A model generated the notes under the pieces. That model searched no databases. It was not told the origin of the DNA and was given only the letters and a program-made list of their open reading frames with translations. 64,000 bases of DNA from Chlorobiota bacterium (lineage in GTDB: Bacteria; Bacteroidota; Ignavibacteria; Kapaibacteriales; UBA2268). The stretch spans positions 11,845-75,844 of the forward strand of contig JBFHIJ010000006.1 in NCBI GenBank assembly GCA_041596515.1, given 5' to 3'. Made by a program: the position numbers and the translations under genes. Numbering within the stretch: position 1 is the stretch's first letter; each line of letters starts with the position of its first letter. Shown piece after piece: positions 16,864 through 25,094 of this stretch.

Positions 16864-17256
16864 TTAGAAATATGAAAAAGGCAAATCTTTAACTCCTCTG
16901 TCGAGTCTATTGATAACTTGCACCAAATTTCGGAAATTGAATGTTTTACTGATATATATATCTGCTCCGTATTGTTTAGCTTGATTGATTAGCCACTGCT
17001 CAGTAAGTGCAGATAAAATAACAATTTTCAATTCGTTATTAGATTCTCTAATTTTGCGTAGAGCTTTGATACCATCCATTTCAGGCATATTTAAATCTAA
17101 TAATAGCAAATCAGGTTGCTCCTCTTGCACTTTTTGGAGCACTTCCTTTCCATTTGCTGCAATCGAGATATCCTTCTGATTAAAACTAATACTTAAATAC
17201 TTGCTAAGTAGTTCCGCAGAAAGTCTATGGTCATCGGCGATAAGTATCTTTTTCAT
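16864..17256 (-). CDS. single-domain response regulator (CheY-like receiver)
   Basis: Receiver motifs ILIADD, LLLLDLNMPEMDG and K near the C-terminus. 130 aa with no output domain. Confidence 0.75.
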   Translation of the reverse strand: MKKILIADDHRLSAELLSKYLSISFNQKDISIAANGKEVLQKVQEEQPDLLLLDLNMPEMDGIKALRKIRESNNELKIVILSALTEQWLINQAKQYGADIYISKTFNFRNLVQVINRLDRGVKDLPFSYF

Positions 17257-18192: not shown

Positions 18193-18199
18193 AAAAATA

Positions 18200-18232
18200 T
18201 GGGGGCTAACGCCCTTTTTTTTTATCCCGTTT
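18200..18232 (+). terminator. weak intrinsic terminator after the LuxR-type regulator
   Basis: Stem gggc/gccc, loop taac, then T9. Confidence 0.35.
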
Positions 18233-18925
18233 GAGACTAATAATTCAAAACCAATTGTTTAAACCCAATCTATACTCCCAAATTCCTTTGTGCATATCAA
18301 TCAATACCACAAACAAACTATAGTATTTGAAAAAAGATAGACTTTTAGATATTTATATTCTAAATACGCAAAATAGTTGCTAAAAAAGCTATTGAACCTT
18401 TCATAATATATACGTACTAATCCGCAAATTCTACTAATTATTTCAAAAACTACGCAGATATAATTAAAAATGCGAAATATCAAAAAAAAATAAAATTAAA
18501 TATCAAAAAGTATAAATAATAATAACATAAATATTTGTTTAAAAGCAATCTTCCTAAATATAGTGATAGCCGAAAGAATACGAGAATGATGGTTAATATT
18601 ACCTTGAAAAATTAGAAGAGAAATCCTAAGGGTTTTCCGCAGAATTAAGTATTATTTGCTATCTATTGACAAGTAATATACAATACTTATTCTCTTATTT
18701 TCAGGGACTTATGGTATTGTGTAGCTACTGTTTTAGAAGTAAATTGCTTGTGAAAGTTATGACATGGTTGACCAAACACTAATCAAACAAAAAACAATCA
18801 ATGACATAACTTACCCGAATAAATCGGGACTGGATTTTAAAAATTACTTCACATCCTAGGCACGAAGTAAATACAAAATCCAAAAGTTAACAAAACATTT
18901 AAATAATCCATAAAGGAAAAGTAAG

Positions 18926-19417
18926 ATGAAAAAGTTTTTCGCAATCGCTCTCGCTTTCGCAATGTTCGCTTCTGTTAATATGTTCGCTGATGATGTAACT
19001 GGTCCTGGTATTGAATTAATGCCTGCAACAGCAGATGCAACAATCAATTTAACAGTATTACAACAAATAGTAGTAACTACTGAGTCTGTTCTTGATTTTG
19101 CTGTAGTTGAAGGTACAGATTCTTACAATCCTGAAACTGGTAGTTTAGAAGCACTTTCTTATAATGTAATATCTACAAATGGCTATGCATTGACTTATGG
19201 TTTAGATTTTGTGATAGCTACACAACCAACAGGTTCTACAGATGCTACAGCTCCTACTATCTCTTTTGCTGACGCTACAGATGGTGAAGTAGCAGTTGGT
19301 AGTAACGATGGTGATATTGATTTAGACTTTACAGTGAATGGAATTAGTGCAATGGATTCTGAAGCTGGCGATTATTCATATACTTACACTCTAAGTGTGT
19401 ACTATACAAACTTCTAA
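18926..19417 (+). CDS. pilin-like secreted protein, SCPU/Csu-type (archaic chaperone-usher subunit), gene 1 and candidate major subunit
   Basis: Signal peptide. C-terminus GDYSYTYTLSVYYTNF resembles CsuA/B ...GDYKDTLLVTVNF. It is followed by a 10-bp-stem hairpin. Confidence 0.55.
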   Translation: MKKFFAIALAFAMFASVNMFADDVTGPGIELMPATADATINLTVLQQIVVTTESVLDFAVVEGTDSYNPETGSLEALSYNVISTNGYALTYGLDFVIATQPTGSTDATAPTISFADATDGEVAVGSNDGDIDLDFTVNGISAMDSEAGDYSYTYTLSVYYTNF

Positions 19418-19429
19418 GAAGATTATCTC

Positions 19430-19460
19430 ATATAGTAGGGACTAAGTATGTCCCTACTAT
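19430..19460 (+). terminator. hairpin between pilin genes 1 and 2 (attenuator or partial terminator)
   Basis: Perfect stem ATAGTAGGGA/TCCCTACTAT with a 9-nt loop. No strong T-run follows. Confidence 0.35.
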
Positions 19461-19483
19461 ATAAATTAAATAGGAGAGTGTAT

Positions 19484-20068
19484 ATGTATTTATTCAAAAA
19501 AATCTTTGCAATATTGATTGCAATAATAATAATCTCTCCGGTATATGTTTATAGTGCTGAAACGCAACCAGACCCAGAACCAACTAATCAAGCAACTGTT
19601 AACATCGAAATATTAGAGCAGCTTACTTGCATAATCGATCCAATTAGTAATGCTGGTGTTGGAAGTTCGGACTTGATATTGGTGCAAGGCACTAGTAGGA
19701 CTGAAGATGAATTTGAAGGTGGATATATTGAACCAACTTATACATTTAAAGCTTGGGGTAAACGAGACCAACCTATTACAATTAACTTCAATGCTACAAA
19801 TTGTGCAAGTTCTGGTGAGATGAAATATTGCGACCCGACTAATCAGGTTAAAGCAACTGTTTCATGGCACTCAGCATCACGACCAAATGAGTTCAACAAA
19901 TTGAACACAAATGTTTGGGAAACGGGATTATATGAAACTCAAAGTGATCCCCATGTGGGAATTGAACAAGCTTATATGATTATTACAAAAATAGAAGCTG
20001 CGGAAGGTACTCCTCCAGGGAATTATACTATCCCATTCACAGTAAGTGTTTATTATACCGGATTTTAA
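19484..20068 (+). CDS. pilin-like secreted protein, SCPU/Csu-type, gene 2
   Basis: Start moved to MYLFKKIFAILIAIIIISPVYVYSA (signal peptide; AGGAGA SD 10 nt upstream). C-terminus PGNYTIPFTVSVYYTGF. Confidence 0.55.
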   Translation: MYLFKKIFAILIAIIIISPVYVYSAETQPDPEPTNQATVNIEILEQLTCIIDPISNAGVGSSDLILVQGTSRTEDEFEGGYIEPTYTFKAWGKRDQPITINFNATNCASSGEMKYCDPTNQVKATVSWHSASRPNEFNKLNTNVWETGLYETQSDPHVGIEQAYMIITKIEAAEGTPPGNYTIPFTVSVYYTGF

Positions 20069-20079
20069 TAGAAAAAATA

Positions 20080-20117
20080 TAAAATCCCTGACTTTGGCTA
20101 AGACAGGGATTTTTTAA
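20080..20117 (+). terminator. hairpin/terminator between pilin genes 2 and 3
   Basis: Stem AAATCCCTG/CAGGGATTT (9 bp) followed by TTTTTAAC. Confidence 0.4.
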
Positions 20118-20132
20118 CAAGGAATCAAAAAA

Positions 20133-20594
20133 GTGAAATACTTTTATATAATCATATTTGTTTTATTAATGCAGGTAGCGGCAGATGCGCAAGTAAATGT
20201 GAATTCCTATTGTCATAATAACAATCAACCCATTCCACTTCAGGTTACTGTTTCTAATGATATAGATTTGGGTGCTGTGGTAGCTGGTTCGACTTCGACA
20301 TTTGAGTCGCCATTTAACGAAAGTATATTTACAATATCAGGTCAGCAGTTAAAATGGATATGTACAGATATCGATACAGAAACAACAAAGCAAGGGATTG
20401 TTCTTGATTTGAGCTTCAAATATAGCCACACAGGCCAATGTTTATGGATATGTTATTTTAACGGTCTTCACAATTTACTAACTGGCAATATCTACGTAAA
20501 GATGAATGTAAACTCGATACAAGTGTCACCGAGCACTCCTCCGGGAGAGTACACTTTTACTCAGTTCGTTCAAGTGGAATACTGTACTTTTTAG
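20133..20594 (+). CDS. pilin-like secreted protein, SCPU/Csu-type, gene 3 (GTG start)
   Basis: Signal peptide MKYFYIIIFVLLMQVAADA. C-terminus PGEYTFTQFVQVEYCTF has the same terminal pattern as genes 1 and 2. Confidence 0.5.
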   Translation: MKYFYIIIFVLLMQVAADAQVNVNSYCHNNNQPIPLQVTVSNDIDLGAVVAGSTSTFESPFNESIFTISGQQLKWICTDIDTETTKQGIVLDLSFKYSHTGQCLWICYFNGLHNLLTGNIYVKMNVNSIQVSPSTPPGEYTFTQFVQVEYCTF

Positions 20595-20703
20595 ACTATA
20601 GACTTTACTGGCAAAAAGTAAAGACATCGCTATAAGTTATTGTATTGCAAAAAGTATGTAGAGATTGAAATTCTAAATTTTACTTATAATAGAGGTAGCA
20701 ATA

Positions 20704-21546
20704 ATGAAAAAGCACATAATAATAATCTTATCTTTTCTATTCTTTTCTTTGACACTTAAAGCGCAAGTGGCGGTAATGCCACCCGCTGTATTCATAGATA
20801 AACACTCACGATCTGCAGAAATGTTTGTAGCTAATTCGAGCAATGAAGTACAAGAAGTAACTGTAGGACTTGAATATGGCTATCCTGCACCTGACTCCTT
20901 AGGCAATATAGCTATGAAATATAACGACTCACTCACTGCAGAGCAATACTCAATAGCGAATCGTCTGGCAATTTTTCCTAAAAAGTTTGAACTAAAACCC
21001 GGAGAAAGGCAAACAGTTCGATTCTTACTAAGAGGTTCCGGCAACTTGGAAGATGGCTTCTATTGGTCTCGAATAAGAACTACAGGCATGAAAACCGCTA
21101 AACAAATAGATTCCTCCAACGCCGAAGGCGATGTAAAAGTAGGGATTAACCTTGCATTCTCTATGGTTACTTTTATTGGGTATAAAAAAGGAGAAACAAA
21201 CACTAATTTAGATATAGTTTATCTTGCAGTAGGTACTGATAGTGCGAACACTAATCTTCTTTTAAATTATAAACGTACGGGTAACTCTCCACTTCTAAGC
21301 AAAACAAAGATAGAAATATTTGATGAAATCGGTAATCTTGTAGCTGAAAAAGAAGAGCCATGCCCATATTATTTCGAGGGTAAGCGTAAGTTTAACTTTC
21401 CCAAAACAGATTTGCCAGCGGGCTCGTACAAAGCCAAATTTTCCTTCAATAACGATTTAGATGATATACCAAAAGACTATCGAGCATCATTTACCCCTTT
21501 TGATAAAACTTTTGATATAAAAGTTAAAGCAGAAAGAGGAAACTAA
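20704..21546 (+). CDS. periplasmic pilus chaperone (PapD/CsuC-like)
   Basis: Signal peptide, then the N-domain motif FELKPGERQTVRFLL, which fits the F.L.PG..Q.VR pattern of fimbrial chaperones. 280 aa. Confidence 0.6.
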   Translation: MKKHIIIILSFLFFSLTLKAQVAVMPPAVFIDKHSRSAEMFVANSSNEVQEVTVGLEYGYPAPDSLGNIAMKYNDSLTAEQYSIANRLAIFPKKFELKPGERQTVRFLLRGSGNLEDGFYWSRIRTTGMKTAKQIDSSNAEGDVKVGINLAFSMVTFIGYKKGETNTNLDIVYLAVGTDSANTNLLLNYKRTGNSPLLSKTKIEIFDEIGNLVAEKEEPCPYYFEGKRKFNFPKTDLPAGSYKAKFSFNNDLDDIPKDYRASFTPFDKTFDIKVKAERGN

Positions 21547-21672
21547 TTTATAAGTGTTTCGGTAAAAAATAGAGATAGCATTTACTTTCAAAAGCCATGG
21601 ATTGACTGTGCTTTAGTATATGCTTATGTATTAGTGAAGTAAACAATATATCATCTAAACGGAAATTATTTA

Positions 21673-24324
21673 GTGCGTGCAACTCTGTACATAAAAATTG
21701 CACTTATGTGCTTTTTGCTATCTCTGATGCCTTCGGTGGTTTCTTGCTCGGAAGCTGTCGAGGGTGTCTTTTCTTTCAAATATGTAAATTTTGAAAAAGA
21801 CATGATAGTGTATATACAAGAAGATGCAGTGTACTTCCCGATTTTCGAGATATTCGATTTCCTCCGTATTTATAAAGAATATGACCCATCTTCCAAAATA
21901 CTATCAGGCTATGTAAGCTCAGAGGAGAGAAGTTATTCTATAGATTTTACCACGTATGAAGCTACTAACCTGCAAGGCGATTCTTATCAAATTGAGAAAG
22001 ACAGCATCATCATAAATGAATTAGATATGTACATAACTGCGTCAGAATTTAGTAAAATACTGGACGTGGAAATCTTTGTCAGCAAGCTTGGATTAATCGG
22101 TCTTCTCAAATCTACGTATGAAATGCCGCTTTTAGAAGAATACAACCTAAGATATAACAAGTTAAAACTAAAAGGATTGGCAAGCGAAGAAGTTTTTGCT
22201 CCTTTGATGTACGGGCGAGACTTCAAGATAATAGATGGAGGTGTGGTAAACTACGGAATCAATTCGAATACAAACAAGCAGTCAACTGTAATCGGGTTAA
22301 ACACTAACCTCGGGATGCAATTATTAGGTGGGGAATTGGCAATAAACAATAGCTATATTTATAATACCTACAGCCAAACAAAATTTCAAAATATTAGATA
22401 CAACTGGCAGTTTCCGTTCAATAAAAATAAATATCTTAATTCTCTAAGAGTTGGTTATGTAACAGGAAATTCTTTAAACTTTGGTTCCTCCGGTTCTAAT
22501 ATCAGGAATAAATATTCAAACCTACAGGGAATATCTATTTCAAATAGAGAAATGGATAATCGAAAGGTATTTGATGAATTTCAGTTTGAAGATATTACTG
22601 AACCATACAGTTTGATAGAAATATATGTAAATTCTCGCTTAGTCAAGCAATTCAGATGCGAGGAAGACGGACGCTACCGATTTGCTTTGCCACTGACTTA
22701 TGGTAATTCAATTATCGAAACAAAAATTTATAGTCCTTCGGGGCAAAGAGATTATAAAAAGGAAACAGTCAATATCCCGGGCATGATGCTTCAGCCCGGC
22801 CAAGTTAGGTATACGCTAACGAGTGGTAAAGATATAAATTATGAAGAATATATTGTAGATGGCATAGTAGAGACTGGGGTTACAGATTGGCTGAGTACTT
22901 CTGTTAGTAATGTTTATAATATAGATAATAAAGTAAATTTACTTGTCAGCAATAGTACTGTTAGGCTAATGGGCGGAGCATACAGCAGCTTTGCATATTC
23001 TCATGATAACTTTTACAGAACTATGATAGCTTATGCTAATTCGCAGATAGGCCACTACGAGTTGTCGTATATGAAATATAAGAGTGATTCGGAAGTTGAT
23101 AAATATGGCAAAGAAGCTGAATATCAATTAAATGTCAACCTGCCACGAATACCCTATTTACCTTTTAGTTTGCGACTTCGAGCAGATGTAGACCAATATA
23201 GTAACAGACTGACCGGAAACTATTCTGTTAACACTTACGGTAATATTGGTTCTATTAGAATAAATAACTCCTACCGATTAGCTCAAACTATAATGAAAGA
23301 TCTGGACAATAGCTACAATCACTATATTAATTGTGGAGTATCTTACTATTTGCAACTTCCATTTCTTAAAGATTCAAGAGCATTAGGCAGAACAAGTATT
23401 TCAACAAACTTCAATTATGATTTGAATATTGGGCAGTTTACTAACTTAAGCGCCTCTATCTCTCAAAGTCTATTCCGAATATTATCTATAAGTGCAAACT
23501 ATAGAAATAATTTAGTAAGTAATTACTCAAGTTTCAATATTAATTTGAGTCTCAATATGGATTTCGCAAGGTTTAGCAGCAGAGCTGAGCTAAGCGAGTC
23601 AAATCAAAGCATTAATAATAACTTGGATGGTTCTTTAGGGTTTGATACTGATAGATTTAACGTCTTTCCTAGTAAGCGCCTTAGTTATACCGGCAACTCC
23701 GGACTTGCCACTATCAAATGCTTTATAGATAGCAATGGTAACTTAAGCTATGACGATGGCGAGGAAGTTTTAACCGGAGTGCCTATTAGAGTGCCGCGCG
23801 CATCTGTTCTCGGAGATAGAGACGATGAATATAAAACAGTTTCTAACTTACGTCCGGGCTATCAATATAATGTTATTATTAATAATAGTGGACTCAAAAA
23901 TCCATTACTTCGTCCATTATGGGATGATTTCTCTTTTATAGCAGATCCTAATACTTTTAAATCGATAGATATACCATTTACTGTTACAGGATTAATAGAA
24001 GGTCAGGTGTTTACTCAAGATTCTTCTGGGAACAGAAATGGTAAATCGGGTGTAAAACTGCATATTATCAGTAAAAAAACAGGTAAAGATGTTACAGTAA
24101 ACGTATTCTCTGATGGCAGTTTTTACCATCTCGGACTTTTTCCGGGATATTATGATGTTTATGTAGATAAAACTCAGCTCGGACTTTTGAATATGATAAC
24201 TGATCCTCCAAGTCAGGAAATATACATCGGTTTCTCTGAAGATGGCGATATGAAGTCAGGAATAGATTTCAGGCTTTTACCTAATAAAGATTCGGGTGGT
24301 GTTGTCTCTCCAAGTGCAGATTAG
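21673..24324 (+). CDS. outer-membrane usher (CsuD-like) with C-terminal CarbopepD_reg-like beta-sandwich
   Basis: 883 aa with signal peptide and a long beta-rich, Y/N/S-rich barrel region. C-terminal GQVFTQDSSG...YYDVYVD resembles a carboxypeptidase-regulatory-like domain. Placed in the operon after the chaperone gene. Confidence 0.55.
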   Translation: MRATLYIKIALMCFLLSLMPSVVSCSEAVEGVFSFKYVNFEKDMIVYIQEDAVYFPIFEIFDFLRIYKEYDPSSKILSGYVSSEERSYSIDFTTYEATNLQGDSYQIEKDSIIINELDMYITASEFSKILDVEIFVSKLGLIGLLKSTYEMPLLEEYNLRYNKLKLKGLASEEVFAPLMYGRDFKIIDGGVVNYGINSNTNKQSTVIGLNTNLGMQLLGGELAINNSYIYNTYSQTKFQNIRYNWQFPFNKNKYLNSLRVGYVTGNSLNFGSSGSNIRNKYSNLQGISISNREMDNRKVFDEFQFEDITEPYSLIEIYVNSRLVKQFRCEEDGRYRFALPLTYGNSIIETKIYSPSGQRDYKKETVNIPGMMLQPGQVRYTLTSGKDINYEEYIVDGIVETGVTDWLSTSVSNVYNIDNKVNLLVSNSTVRLMGGAYSSFAYSHDNFYRTMIAYANSQIGHYELSYMKYKSDSEVDKYGKEAEYQLNVNLPRIPYLPFSLRLRADVDQYSNRLTGNYSVNTYGNIGSIRINNSYRLAQTIMKDLDNSYNHYINCGVSYYLQLPFLKDSRALGRTSISTNFNYDLNIGQFTNLSASISQSLFRILSISANYRNNLVSNYSSFNINLSLNMDFARFSSRAELSESNQSINNNLDGSLGFDTDRFNVFPSKRLSYTGNSGLATIKCFIDSNGNLSYDDGEEVLTGVPIRVPRASVLGDRDDEYKTVSNLRPGYQYNVIINNSGLKNPLLRPLWDDFSFIADPNTFKSIDIPFTVTGLIEGQVFTQDSSGNRNGKSGVKLHIISKKTGKDVTVNVFSDGSFYHLGLFPGYYDVYVDKTQLGLLNMITDPPSQEIYIGFSEDGDMKSGIDFRLLPNKDSGGVVSPSAD

Positions 24325-24378
24325 TGGGTTAATTTCAATTGTTGTATATTGCGGATACAATCTAAAAGGAGAATTAGT

Positions 24379-24633
24379 ATGAATTTCAAAGAACTATTTA
24401 AAATTGCATCACTGGCTGTACAGGACTCCTACGAAAAAGACATATTTGATATAAGGTTAGAGCAAGTAGAAAAAGATGGTGATAACTACTTAGTTGTGGT
24501 CTCGTTTGTGATAGAAGATAAAATGAAAGAAGAAAGTTTAATTGCTTTTACCGGGAAATATGAGCGTATATACAAGCAAATCAGAATAGACAAAGATAAA
24601 AGTGTTGTTGGATTGTATATGTTTAAATTCTGA
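24379..24633 (+). CDS. small protein of unknown fold, candidate antitoxin partner of the downstream PIN gene
   Basis: Strong SD AAAGGAG 7 nt before this ATG; the ORF-track start at 24349 lacks one. Its stop overlaps the next start (TGATG). Confidence 0.4.
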   Translation: MNFKELFKIASLAVQDSYEKDIFDIRLEQVEKDGDNYLVVVSFVIEDKMKEESLIAFTGKYERIYKQIRIDKDKSVVGLYMFKF

Positions 24634-25094
24634 TGGTAGTAATTGATACTAATGCTTTGGTAGTTTATGTCTTGGGGCTTATGAATCCAGCATTGATAGA
24701 GACACATAAGCGTACTTCTATTTATGATAAAGCGGATTTTGAATACTTACTAAAACTCACTTACAAAAAAGAAATATTTACTTTGCCAGATATTCTAAGT
24801 GAAGTAGATAATTTACTAAATAAATTTAAAGGGAAATACAGAAGAATATATGCCAAGAAATTTTTAGATTTTGTAAAATATTCAAGTGAAAGATATCTGG
24901 AAAGCTTAATAATTGAATCAAATTTTGAATTATTTCAAGAAATTGGACTGACAGACTTAAAGGTTTTAGAACTATCAGAACAGGCTGAATATTTAATTAC
25001 CGCGGATTCTAAATTGGCTGATTATGCAAGCTGTTATGGAATAAAGGTTATAGATTTAGTTAAGAATAGAAATGTTCGCCTACTCTCCACTTAA
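24633..25094 (+). CDS. PIN-domain protein (VapC-like putative toxin)
   Basis: N-terminal VVIDTNALV and later LITADSKLADYA fit the PIN acidic-residue pattern. Translationally coupled to the upstream small ORF. Confidence 0.5.
   Translation: MVVIDTNALVVYVLGLMNPALIETHKRTSIYDKADFEYLLKLTYKKEIFTLPDILSEVDNLLNKFKGKYRRIYAKKFLDFVKYSSERYLESLIIESNFELFQEIGLTDLKVLELSEQAEYLITADSKLADYASCYGIKVIDLVKNRNVRLLST

Follow-up and report, generated by a model that had tools for sequence, protein, structure and literature searches.

A probable chaperone-usher fibre-assembly operon with DUF4402-type subunits in a Kapaibacteriales genome

The five consecutive genes at positions 18926-24324 of a 64,000-nucleotide stretch of a Chlorobiota bacterium genome (contig JBFHIJ010000006.1; "the window" denotes this whole stretch) raise the question of whether they encode a chaperone-usher (CU) pilus and, if so, to which branch of that pathway they belong. 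CU pili are textbook adhesion and biofilm machinery. A first-pass annotation, made from the DNA letters, had read the locus as a complete archaic (Csu/sigma-type) pilus operon with pilins of the SCPU family, possibly acquired horizontally, in a genome of the Fibrobacteres-Chlorobi-Bacteroidetes (FCB) group bearing a type IX secretion system (T9SS). Our analysis indicates that the operon probably encodes all the parts of a CU system for fibre assembly, of a deep-branching "DUF4402-type" that had escaped annotation. The system appears to lie outside the sigma clade and to be ancestral to its lineage. The earlier claim of a complete CU operon is thereby borne out at the superfamily level. All five open reading frames (ORFs) are found on the same strand exactly where they had been described, and each encodes a secreted protein with a signal-peptide-like N-terminus.

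18926-19417, + strand: Subunit A, 163 aa (ORF listing)
19448-20068, + strand: Subunit B, 206 aa, or 194 aa if the alternative start at 19484 is used
20133-20594, + strand: Subunit C, 153 aa (ORF listing)
20704-21546, + strand: predicted PapD-like periplasmic chaperone, 280 aa, two Ig-like domains
21673-24324, + strand: predicted outer-membrane usher, 883 aa

The genome most similar to that of the host, with 96% identity, is a metagenome-assembled genome (MAG) of Candidatus Kapaibacterium (locus L006), which places the host in the FCB group. A T9SS cargo protein at 1195-2283 of the window carries a Por_Secre_tail domain (E 3e-12), so that the earlier description of the host was right on both counts.

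We modelled the 883-aa protein with AlphaFold2 (AF2) from a 42-sequence alignment, obtaining a predicted local distance difference test (pLDDT) score of 86.3. In a Foldseek search against the PDB, the top 19 matches of this model were exclusively FimD and PapC, with E-values from 1.5e-29 (FimD, 3rfz) to 5e-12 over up to ~920 columns; the next match, at 5.6e-8, covered a local domain only. The strand count, read from the DSSP string of the model rather than from inspected coordinates, gave 6 + 18 = 24 long strands with a six-strand insert between the two groups, followed by two C-terminal sandwiches. The model thus shows the full fold of an outer-membrane usher, with a predicted N-terminal domain, a 24-strand barrel, a plug after strand 6 and two C-terminal sandwiches, as had been proposed for this protein. 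Its predicted parts are the following.

21757-22113, + strand: N-terminal periplasmic domain, aa 29-147, confident alpha/beta in the model
22231-22542, + strand: barrel strands beta1-beta6, aa 187-290, from DSSP, aligned to PapC 172-262
22570-22776, + strand: plug domain, aa ~300-368, six short strands between barrel strands 6 and 7
22789-23646, + strand: barrel strands beta7-beta24, aa 373-658, starting with the motif QPGQVRYTLTSGK
23701-24282, + strand: C-terminal periplasmic beta-sandwiches, CTD1 at aa 677-756 and CTD2 at aa 762-870, the latter transthyretin/CarboxypepD_reg-like

The plug segment aligns with that of PapC (ITGIAETNARVVV...EVIEQNGRK), the motif that opens the second part of the barrel is nearly identical to PapC RPGQVRYKLVSGR, with PGQVRY.L.SG common to both, and CTD1 aligns to PapC residues 682-725. 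The N-terminal domain is presumably the docking site for chaperone-subunit complexes; its equivalence to the FimD/PapC domain is suggested by its position, the hhalign alignment starting at aa 189. Pfam Usher (PF00577) matched neither the window usher nor any of its 42 relatives. Pfam likewise detected no CarboxypepD_reg-like domain in the window protein, where one had been described at the C-terminus; the description is nevertheless supported by the modelled beta-sandwich at 762-870 and by the relatives, 33-34 of 42 of which have a CarboxypepD_reg or SdrD_B-like domain in their C-terminal part.

Several relatives extend further. After the ~880-aa core, their extreme C-termini carry SPOR (9 of 42), OmpA (3 of 42) or LysM (1 of 42) modules (for example P0005, P0024, P0025 and P0035), and the window usher has no such module. 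Since these modules bind peptidoglycan, the C-terminal end of the usher is expected to lie in the periplasm, where known ushers have theirs, which makes the adhesin role once suggested for the C-terminal extension unlikely. We know of no described CU system with cell-wall-tethered ushers. The signal sequence of the window usher ends in ...LMPSVVSC before SEA and fits a lipobox; in most relatives, a signal-peptidase-I site of the AQ type is found instead. Lipidation would be out of the ordinary for an usher.

The AF2 model of the 280-aa protein (15-sequence alignment, pLDDT 87) is all-beta with two domains and shows a predicted two-domain PapD-like periplasmic chaperone, as the first-pass annotation had stated. 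Foldseek returned hundreds of CU chaperones from the PDB, such as CfaA, CsuC, SafB, FimC, EcpB, PapD and Caf1M, with E-values from 1e-9 to 1e-6, and CfaA and CsuC stood above the classical chaperones in the ranking. Sub-threshold PapD_N matches were observed in 7 of 15 chaperone homologues, and the motif F.L.PG..Q.VR that had been quoted for the protein is present as FELKPGERQTVR at residues 95-106. An invariant proline in strand D1 is a criterion for CU chaperones (PMC4654587); in the window family P92 is invariant, sits at a D1 kink where the strand breaks (88-91/94-97) and is paired by hhalign with CsuC Pro59.

CU chaperones hold the subunit carboxylate by an anchor of conserved residues: an A1 Arg with a G1 Lys in classical chaperones (PapD Arg8/Lys112; Caf1M Arg20/Lys139), and an F1 Arg (CsuC Arg89) with an F2 Tyr (Tyr196) in archaic and alternative ones (PMC4654587). 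Among the 15 homologues, no conserved basic residue was found in A1 (22-30: V.V.P...F) or G1 (144-160), which leaves the classical pair without a counterpart. By contrast, R123 is invariant in predicted strand F1, 31 residues past the proline (CsuC spacing, 30), and Y242 is invariant in a late domain-2 strand, where it was compared to CsuC Tyr196; CsuC Arg174 has no clear counterpart in the family. The G1 region shows alternating hydrophobics at residues 144-152 and is the sole low-confidence stretch of the model, which fits a loop ordered only upon subunit binding. Domain 2 of the chaperone (residues 198-250) also bears a weak likeness to the C-terminal sorting domains of the T9SS (CHU_C, E 1.3e-3), with Por_Secre_tail matches in 5 of 15 homologues and weak WxLIP_PGBD matches likewise in 5 of 15.

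The three small proteins are weak mutual paralogues. Subunit A, a cysteine-free protein with a signal peptide, shows alternating hydrophobics in an N-terminal segment (ATINLTVLQQIVV) and carries the C-terminal motif GDYSYTYTLSVYYTNF. Subunit B contains an insertion, has the N-terminal donor-like segment ATVNIEILEQL, matches the hidden Markov model (HMM) of the subunit family and is orthologous to a 176-aa protein of locus L001. Subunit C is Cys-rich and adjoins the chaperone gene. At E<=1, none of the three matched Pfam SCPU or DUF4402, and Subunit A gave no DUF4402 match even at E<=10. Their family became apparent through related loci, in which the small genes match DUF4402 (PF14352): 25 of 36 subunits pooled from homologous operons did so (best E 2e-15), and only one touched SCPU (E 0.015). 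An HMM of these DUF4402-type neighbours matched Subunit A (E 1e-4) and Subunit C (E 8e-7), and the subunits of the window clade aligned with the neighbours over 152 columns (hhalign 96%, E 4.8e-9).

Profile-profile comparison extended this kinship. The pooled subunit family aligned with SCPU pilins over 134-162 columns, including the donor-strand region (hhalign 96.7-97.1%, E 4e-10 to 6e-11), and with classical pilins over 32 C-terminal columns alone (84%). Features of the subunits that align with CsuA/B are the N-terminal strand, the "LDFG" motif and the "G.Y.....V.Y" strand at the C-terminus. The C-termini that had been quoted for the small proteins are correct, as is that of CsuA/B (...GDYKDTLLVTVNF, checked against PDB 7zl4); against the single CsuA/B sequence, the subunit profile recovered the C-terminal motif alone (1.3%), and the SCPU profile was needed for more. 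A, B and C thus appear, at the level of sequence profiles, to be mutually paralogous proteins, predicted to be Sec-exported, of a divergent branch of DUF4402 that is remotely related to SCPU pilins. The earlier assignment to SCPU therefore holds as remote kinship and fails as Pfam membership, the family being DUF4402. A conserved pilin cysteine pair, forming a disulphide, is a criterion for archaic pilins (PMC4654587, PMC10104325). In 11 of 11 SCPU pilins, two conserved columns were each occupied by a Cys, and the pair was not found among the DUF4402-type subunits, of which 25 of 36 are Cys-free, with no column holding more than 3 Cys in the 36.

In most subunits, the signal peptide and the LxFG motif are separated by at least 20 residues, some of which form an alternating-hydrophobic strand. 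The chaperone-proximal subunit of loci L001, L003 and L010 has just 9-11 residues ahead of this motif, and the corresponding segment of Subunit C in the window is polar (QVNVNSYCHNNNQ). With modest confidence, we consider Subunit C a candidate tip or initiator, because its gene adjoins that of the chaperone and it has no canonical N-terminal donor segment; CU logic expects a non-donating subunit at the tip, hence its proposed distal place. Subunit A is presumed from its gene position to be the major subunit, and Subunit B may, again with modest confidence, be a minor subunit or adaptor. The third-position GC of Subunit A is 0.177, compared with 0.297+-0.039 for 37 background genes, at a typical overall GC, possibly reflecting the expression-related codon bias of a major subunit.

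DUF4402 has no functional annotation, and no paper mentioning the family was found in the literature searched. The only match in a tblastn search of plasmids with a DUF4402 subunit was a solitary DUF4402-like hypothetical protein, encoded on a Cetobacterium somerae (Fusobacteriota) plasmid (NZ_CP092522.1, 122985-123473, L029; 27% identity, E 2e-5) with no chaperone or usher genes near it.

To place the system among CU clades, we compared its components by local hhalign with four complete archaic operons found via CsuA/B (A. baumannii csu, Burkholderia, Novosphingobium and Paracoccus) and with the classical pap, mrk, pef and fae operons found via PapD, the comparator profiles holding 4 sequences each for chaperones and ushers. 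The window usher matched archaic ushers at 97.4% (E 1.6e-11, score 107) and classical ushers at 98.5% (E 2.2e-15, score 139), whereas archaic and classical ushers matched each other at 100% (E 3e-47, score 380). The chaperone gave the same picture, at 91.1% (E 1e-6) against archaic and 93.0% (E 3.5e-7) against classical chaperones, compared with 96.5% (E 8e-10) between these two. Six mismatched control pairs all stayed below 1%, which, together with the matches, argues that all three components are genuine remote CU homologues. On these profile scores, the usher and chaperone fall outside the archaic-plus-classical group, and only the subunits appear specifically SCPU-like.

Likenesses to both groups are seen. 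With the Csu and CupE systems (A. baumannii CsuA/B-A-B-C-D-E; Pseudomonas aeruginosa CupE), the window operon shares the order pilins, chaperone, usher, and its family shares with SCPU pilins a donor-like strand at the N-terminus, the LDFG motif and a "G.Y.....V..(Y/F)" strand at the C-terminus. The chaperone has the universal D1 proline, its invariant F1 arginine and domain-2 tyrosine are candidate counterparts of the CsuC carboxylate anchor, and archaic ushers have an overall architecture like that of the window usher. With classical pili (Fim, Pap, Mrk, Pef, Fae) it shares the plug between strands 6 and 7, the PGQVRY.L.SG motif and the two-domain PapD chaperone fold, FimD (3rfz) and PapC (7lhg) are the best structural matches of the usher, and classical ushers give its best hhalign score. 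Unlike classical systems, it has no A1-Arg/G1-Lys anchor, its subunits align with theirs over the last 32 columns alone, and its proteins have no Pfam matches. CTD2 of the usher, transthyretin/CarboxypepD_reg-like and extended by SPOR, OmpA or LysM in relatives, differs from archaic ushers. A two-domain tip adhesin is encoded after the usher in all four archaic operons compared, whereas neither the window operon nor the related loci encode a CsuE-like one; the earlier remark that no separate CsuE-like gene exists was accurate, the two ORFs 3' of the usher being unrelated.

The family is large. A HMMER search with the usher profile returned 5,266 cluster representatives when cut at E<=1e-3, of which 2,147 also passed E<=1e-30; most matches were full-length. 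The usher relatives bear the source names "hypothetical protein" or "FtsN". A word-indexed search of 5.8 billion sequences retrieved 7 relatives of the 883-aa protein and 16 of the 280-aa protein, none annotated as CU; in a further word-indexed search, with the 42-sequence usher alignment, words from transthyretin domains predominated and the family gained no members. When gene neighbourhoods were looked up and species-representative genomes scanned, the order of 1-4 small subunits, chaperone and usher reappeared in ~18 loci from Kapabacteria, Ignavibacteria/Ignavibacteriales, Fodinibius/Aliifodinibius/Balneolaceae, Bacteroidales, Prolixibacteraceae and Neomarinimicrobiota. Because the same order repeats in so many loci of several lineages, the arrangement is far beyond chance. 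One of them (L005:1-16831) encodes four DUF4402-type subunits, with several small ORFs and a DUF4900 protein upstream and fliG, motA and motB directly downstream. Our searches for literature on DUF4402 and on CU systems in Bacteroidota, Bacteroidetes and Ignavibacteria, incomplete in coverage, found nothing relevant; structure-based database annotations may already hint at such a CU system.

Could the operon still be a genuine member of the archaic (sigma, Csu-type) clade whose SCPU pilins have simply diverged in sequence? We consider this unlikely. Its subunits do lie nearer SCPU pilins (96.7%, 134 columns) than classical ones, and one of the 36 touches Pfam SCPU, yet they do not share the cysteine pair that is universal among the SCPU pilins examined. 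Its gene order is csu-like, but the two-domain tip adhesin of all four archaic operons is missing. The invariant F1 arginine is a hallmark of archaic and alternative chaperones, and CfaA and CsuC outrank classical chaperones in the fold search; even so, archaic profiles give usher and chaperone no higher scores than classical ones do, and both fall far short of the score of archaic against classical. The window proteins match none of PF05229, PF00345, PF02753 and PF00577, the profiles with which the first-pass annotation had proposed to check its reading, and Usher is absent from all 42 relatives. Furthermore, CU systems are known from Proteobacteria, with archaic (sigma) systems also in Cyanobacteria and Deinococcota, a distribution that does not include the FCB group (PMC4654587, PMC10104325). 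The archaic label is thus not supported in the form given, and of the outcomes that had been named in advance as refuting the reading, the failure of profile searches to assign the small proteins to SCPU came about, whereas the models do show the chaperone and usher folds.

A second alternative accepts CU-derived machinery but denies a polymeric pilus: the DUF4402 proteins would be exported as monomers or short oligomers, form a capsule- or S-layer-like coat, or serve another outer-membrane role. We regard this as improbable. In its favour, no fibre has been observed; the operon has no dedicated adhesin gene; and many relatives' ushers carry a SPOR, OmpA or LysM peptidoglycan tether foreign to known pilus ushers. 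Against this, most subunits possess an N-terminal alternating-hydrophobic segment that aligns with the CsuA/B donor strand, and heteropolymeric fibres typically come from operons with several paralogous subunits, as here. Precedents for coats exist, Caf1-like CU systems making amorphous capsule-like polymers and Myxococcus SCPU proteins being spore-coat components, but these products are still polymers formed by donor-strand exchange. That a Bacteroidota-group genome recently acquired the operon horizontally, with Proteobacteria as one conceivable source, is very unlikely. In favour of this, CU systems had previously been reported only outside the FCB group, the leader is AT-rich, and the junction 3' of the usher varies between strains. 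The comparison of composition that had been suggested earlier, run here against the window, gave an operon GC of 0.354-0.365 (background, 0.359+-0.033), window-typical GC3 and codon usage, and a relative synonymous codon usage (RSCU) distance of 0.58 (ordinary genes, 0.86+-0.18). Genes for a tryptophanase-like lyase and two response regulators flank the operon here and also in relatives whose proteins are only 47-50% identical. All of the nearest relatives belong to FCB-group lineages, and no homology search found a close proteobacterial relative. Because the composition is typical and the flanking genes are conserved, the system is, on the evidence of sequence and synteny, ancestral to its lineage and vertically inherited, with no recent acquisition.

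Two further systems bear on the classification. Type V (FimA/Mfa) pilins are protease-processed lipoprotein precursors that polymerise by strand exchange and use no PapD-like chaperone or usher. They share with the window a broad phylogenetic group of hosts and the strand-exchange principle, and Pfam, NCBIfam and fold searches revealed no likeness of the five operon proteins to them. WxLIP proteins (DUF916/DUF3324) are two-domain and Ig-like, as is the window chaperone, and the fold and WxLIP_PGBD matches hint that they are PapD-like relatives. They are, however, Gram-positive surface proteins with no usher partner, whereas the window gene lies between pilin-like genes and an usher gene in a diderm and encodes the CU proline and arginine. 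A WxL-type system was ruled out, the locus having an usher and a diderm host.

Several observations weigh against a DUF4402-type CU fibre system, the reading we prefer. None of the five proteins gave a SCPU, PapD_N, PapD_C or Usher match in Pfam or NCBIfam, and single-sequence (phmmer) and profile (hmmsearch) searches of PDB sequences yielded nothing relevant. The top Foldseek matches of the chaperone are Enterococcus faecium WxLIP proteins (9i1y, 9i25; E ~2e-10), ahead of the CU chaperones. The proposed equivalence of R123/Y242 to CsuC Arg89/Tyr196 draws on the spacing of these residues and the strands to which they were assigned; the hhalign alignment ends at residues 119-124. The window's own three subunits taken alone reach only 26.6% against SCPU (hhalign), so that the link runs via DUF4402, with which the window subunits are in turn connected through the subunits of homologous operons, being too divergent to match the model themselves. 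Subunit C of the window keeps a 12-residue N-terminal segment, albeit a polar one. The outgroup placement of usher and chaperone is a matter of score triads from small profiles rather than of a phylogeny, and we infer, rather than observe, that donor-strand complementation and exchange occur, that fibres form and which role each subunit has.

If the operon works as a DUF4402-type CU system, its subunits would cross the inner membrane via Sec, and the G1 strand of the chaperone, with its alternating hydrophobics at 144-152, would cap the incomplete Ig-like fold of each. R123 in F1 and Y242 in domain 2 would secure the subunit's C-terminal carboxylate, in the non-classical manner of archaic and alternative chaperones. 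The chaperone-subunit complex would then dock on the usher, the plug would be displaced, and donor-strand exchange via the N-terminal alternating-hydrophobic segment would polymerise the subunits as the fibre passes outward through the barrel. Subunit A would probably be the major component, B a minor one or an adaptor, and C would probably be the tip, assembled before the others. Expression would probably be driven from a conserved 733-bp leader and possibly by an adjacent LuxR-type response regulator.

On balance, we lean slightly towards the broader view that the family is an ancient, unrecognised CU branch, basal to all described usher clades, with DUF4402-type, disulphide-free subunits, no two-domain adhesin and ushers often tethered to peptidoglycan, and widespread in bacteria of the FCB group and related environmental ones. 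If this is true, the CU pathway is older and far wider than the Proteobacteria, Cyanobacteria and Deinococcota picture implies, and Bacteroidota-group organisms own a second strand-exchange pilus system beside type V pili. A complete CU system would have escaped the standard Pfam and NCBIfam models, suggesting that environmental Bacteroidota-group bacteria carry an adhesion system wholly missed by current annotation. DUF4402 would gain a function, fibre subunits, assigned by the present analysis, and the family would supply an outgroup with which to root usher and chaperone evolution. Peptidoglycan-tethered ushers and disulphide-free subunits could, in addition, show how the pathway works without its classical parts.

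The leader spans 733 bp (18193-18925) with a GC content of 27.1%, compared with ~35% for the window, in keeping with the ~730-bp AT-rich leader described earlier. A core of about 100 bp is 81% identical in the Kapabacteria loci L001 and L008, whose operon proteins are just 35-50% identical. The conserved blocks comprise TATGGTATTGTGTAGC, GTAAATTGCT..GAAAGTTATGAC and the palindrome ATCCTAGGCA, and the best sigma-70-like matches in the leader lie at 18656-18693. The leader hairpin CCCGAATAAATCGGG reads CTCG...CGAG in L001. No Rfam match was found for the leader, and RNAalifold on four sequences gave no covariation support for a structure; the core may be a regulator-binding region or a 5' untranslated region (UTR) element. 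The features of the leader and of the regulator genes upstream are as follows.

16864-17256, - strand: stand-alone receiver protein, 130 aa
17533-18192, + strand: LuxR-type response regulator with a receiver (REC) domain and a GerE helix-turn-helix (HTH) domain (Pfam Response_reg 7e-24, GerE 7e-17)
18201-18216: terminator-like hairpin of the upstream regulator gene, separating that gene from the leader
~18684-18783: conserved ~100-bp leader core
18814-18828: conserved leader hairpin

The receiver protein and the REC-GerE regulator are encoded divergently just upstream of the operon and are kept there in L001, L006 and L008; in L002 and L017, a related regulator adjoins the operon. No cognate histidine kinase gene lies adjacent to this pair. 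From its adjacency alone, the LuxR-type regulator is possibly the regulator of the operon.

On the other side of the operon, two small unrelated and overlapping ORFs (94 and 153 aa) occupy 24349-25094, between the usher gene and truA. Both are missing from all Kapabacteria relatives compared, and the 153-aa protein has weak PADLOC matches only (PDC-M11A, 5.5e-4). In the 96%-identical genome (L006), another segment, ~2.5 kb long, occupies the usher-truA junction, which marks the junction 3' of the usher as a strain-variable spot.

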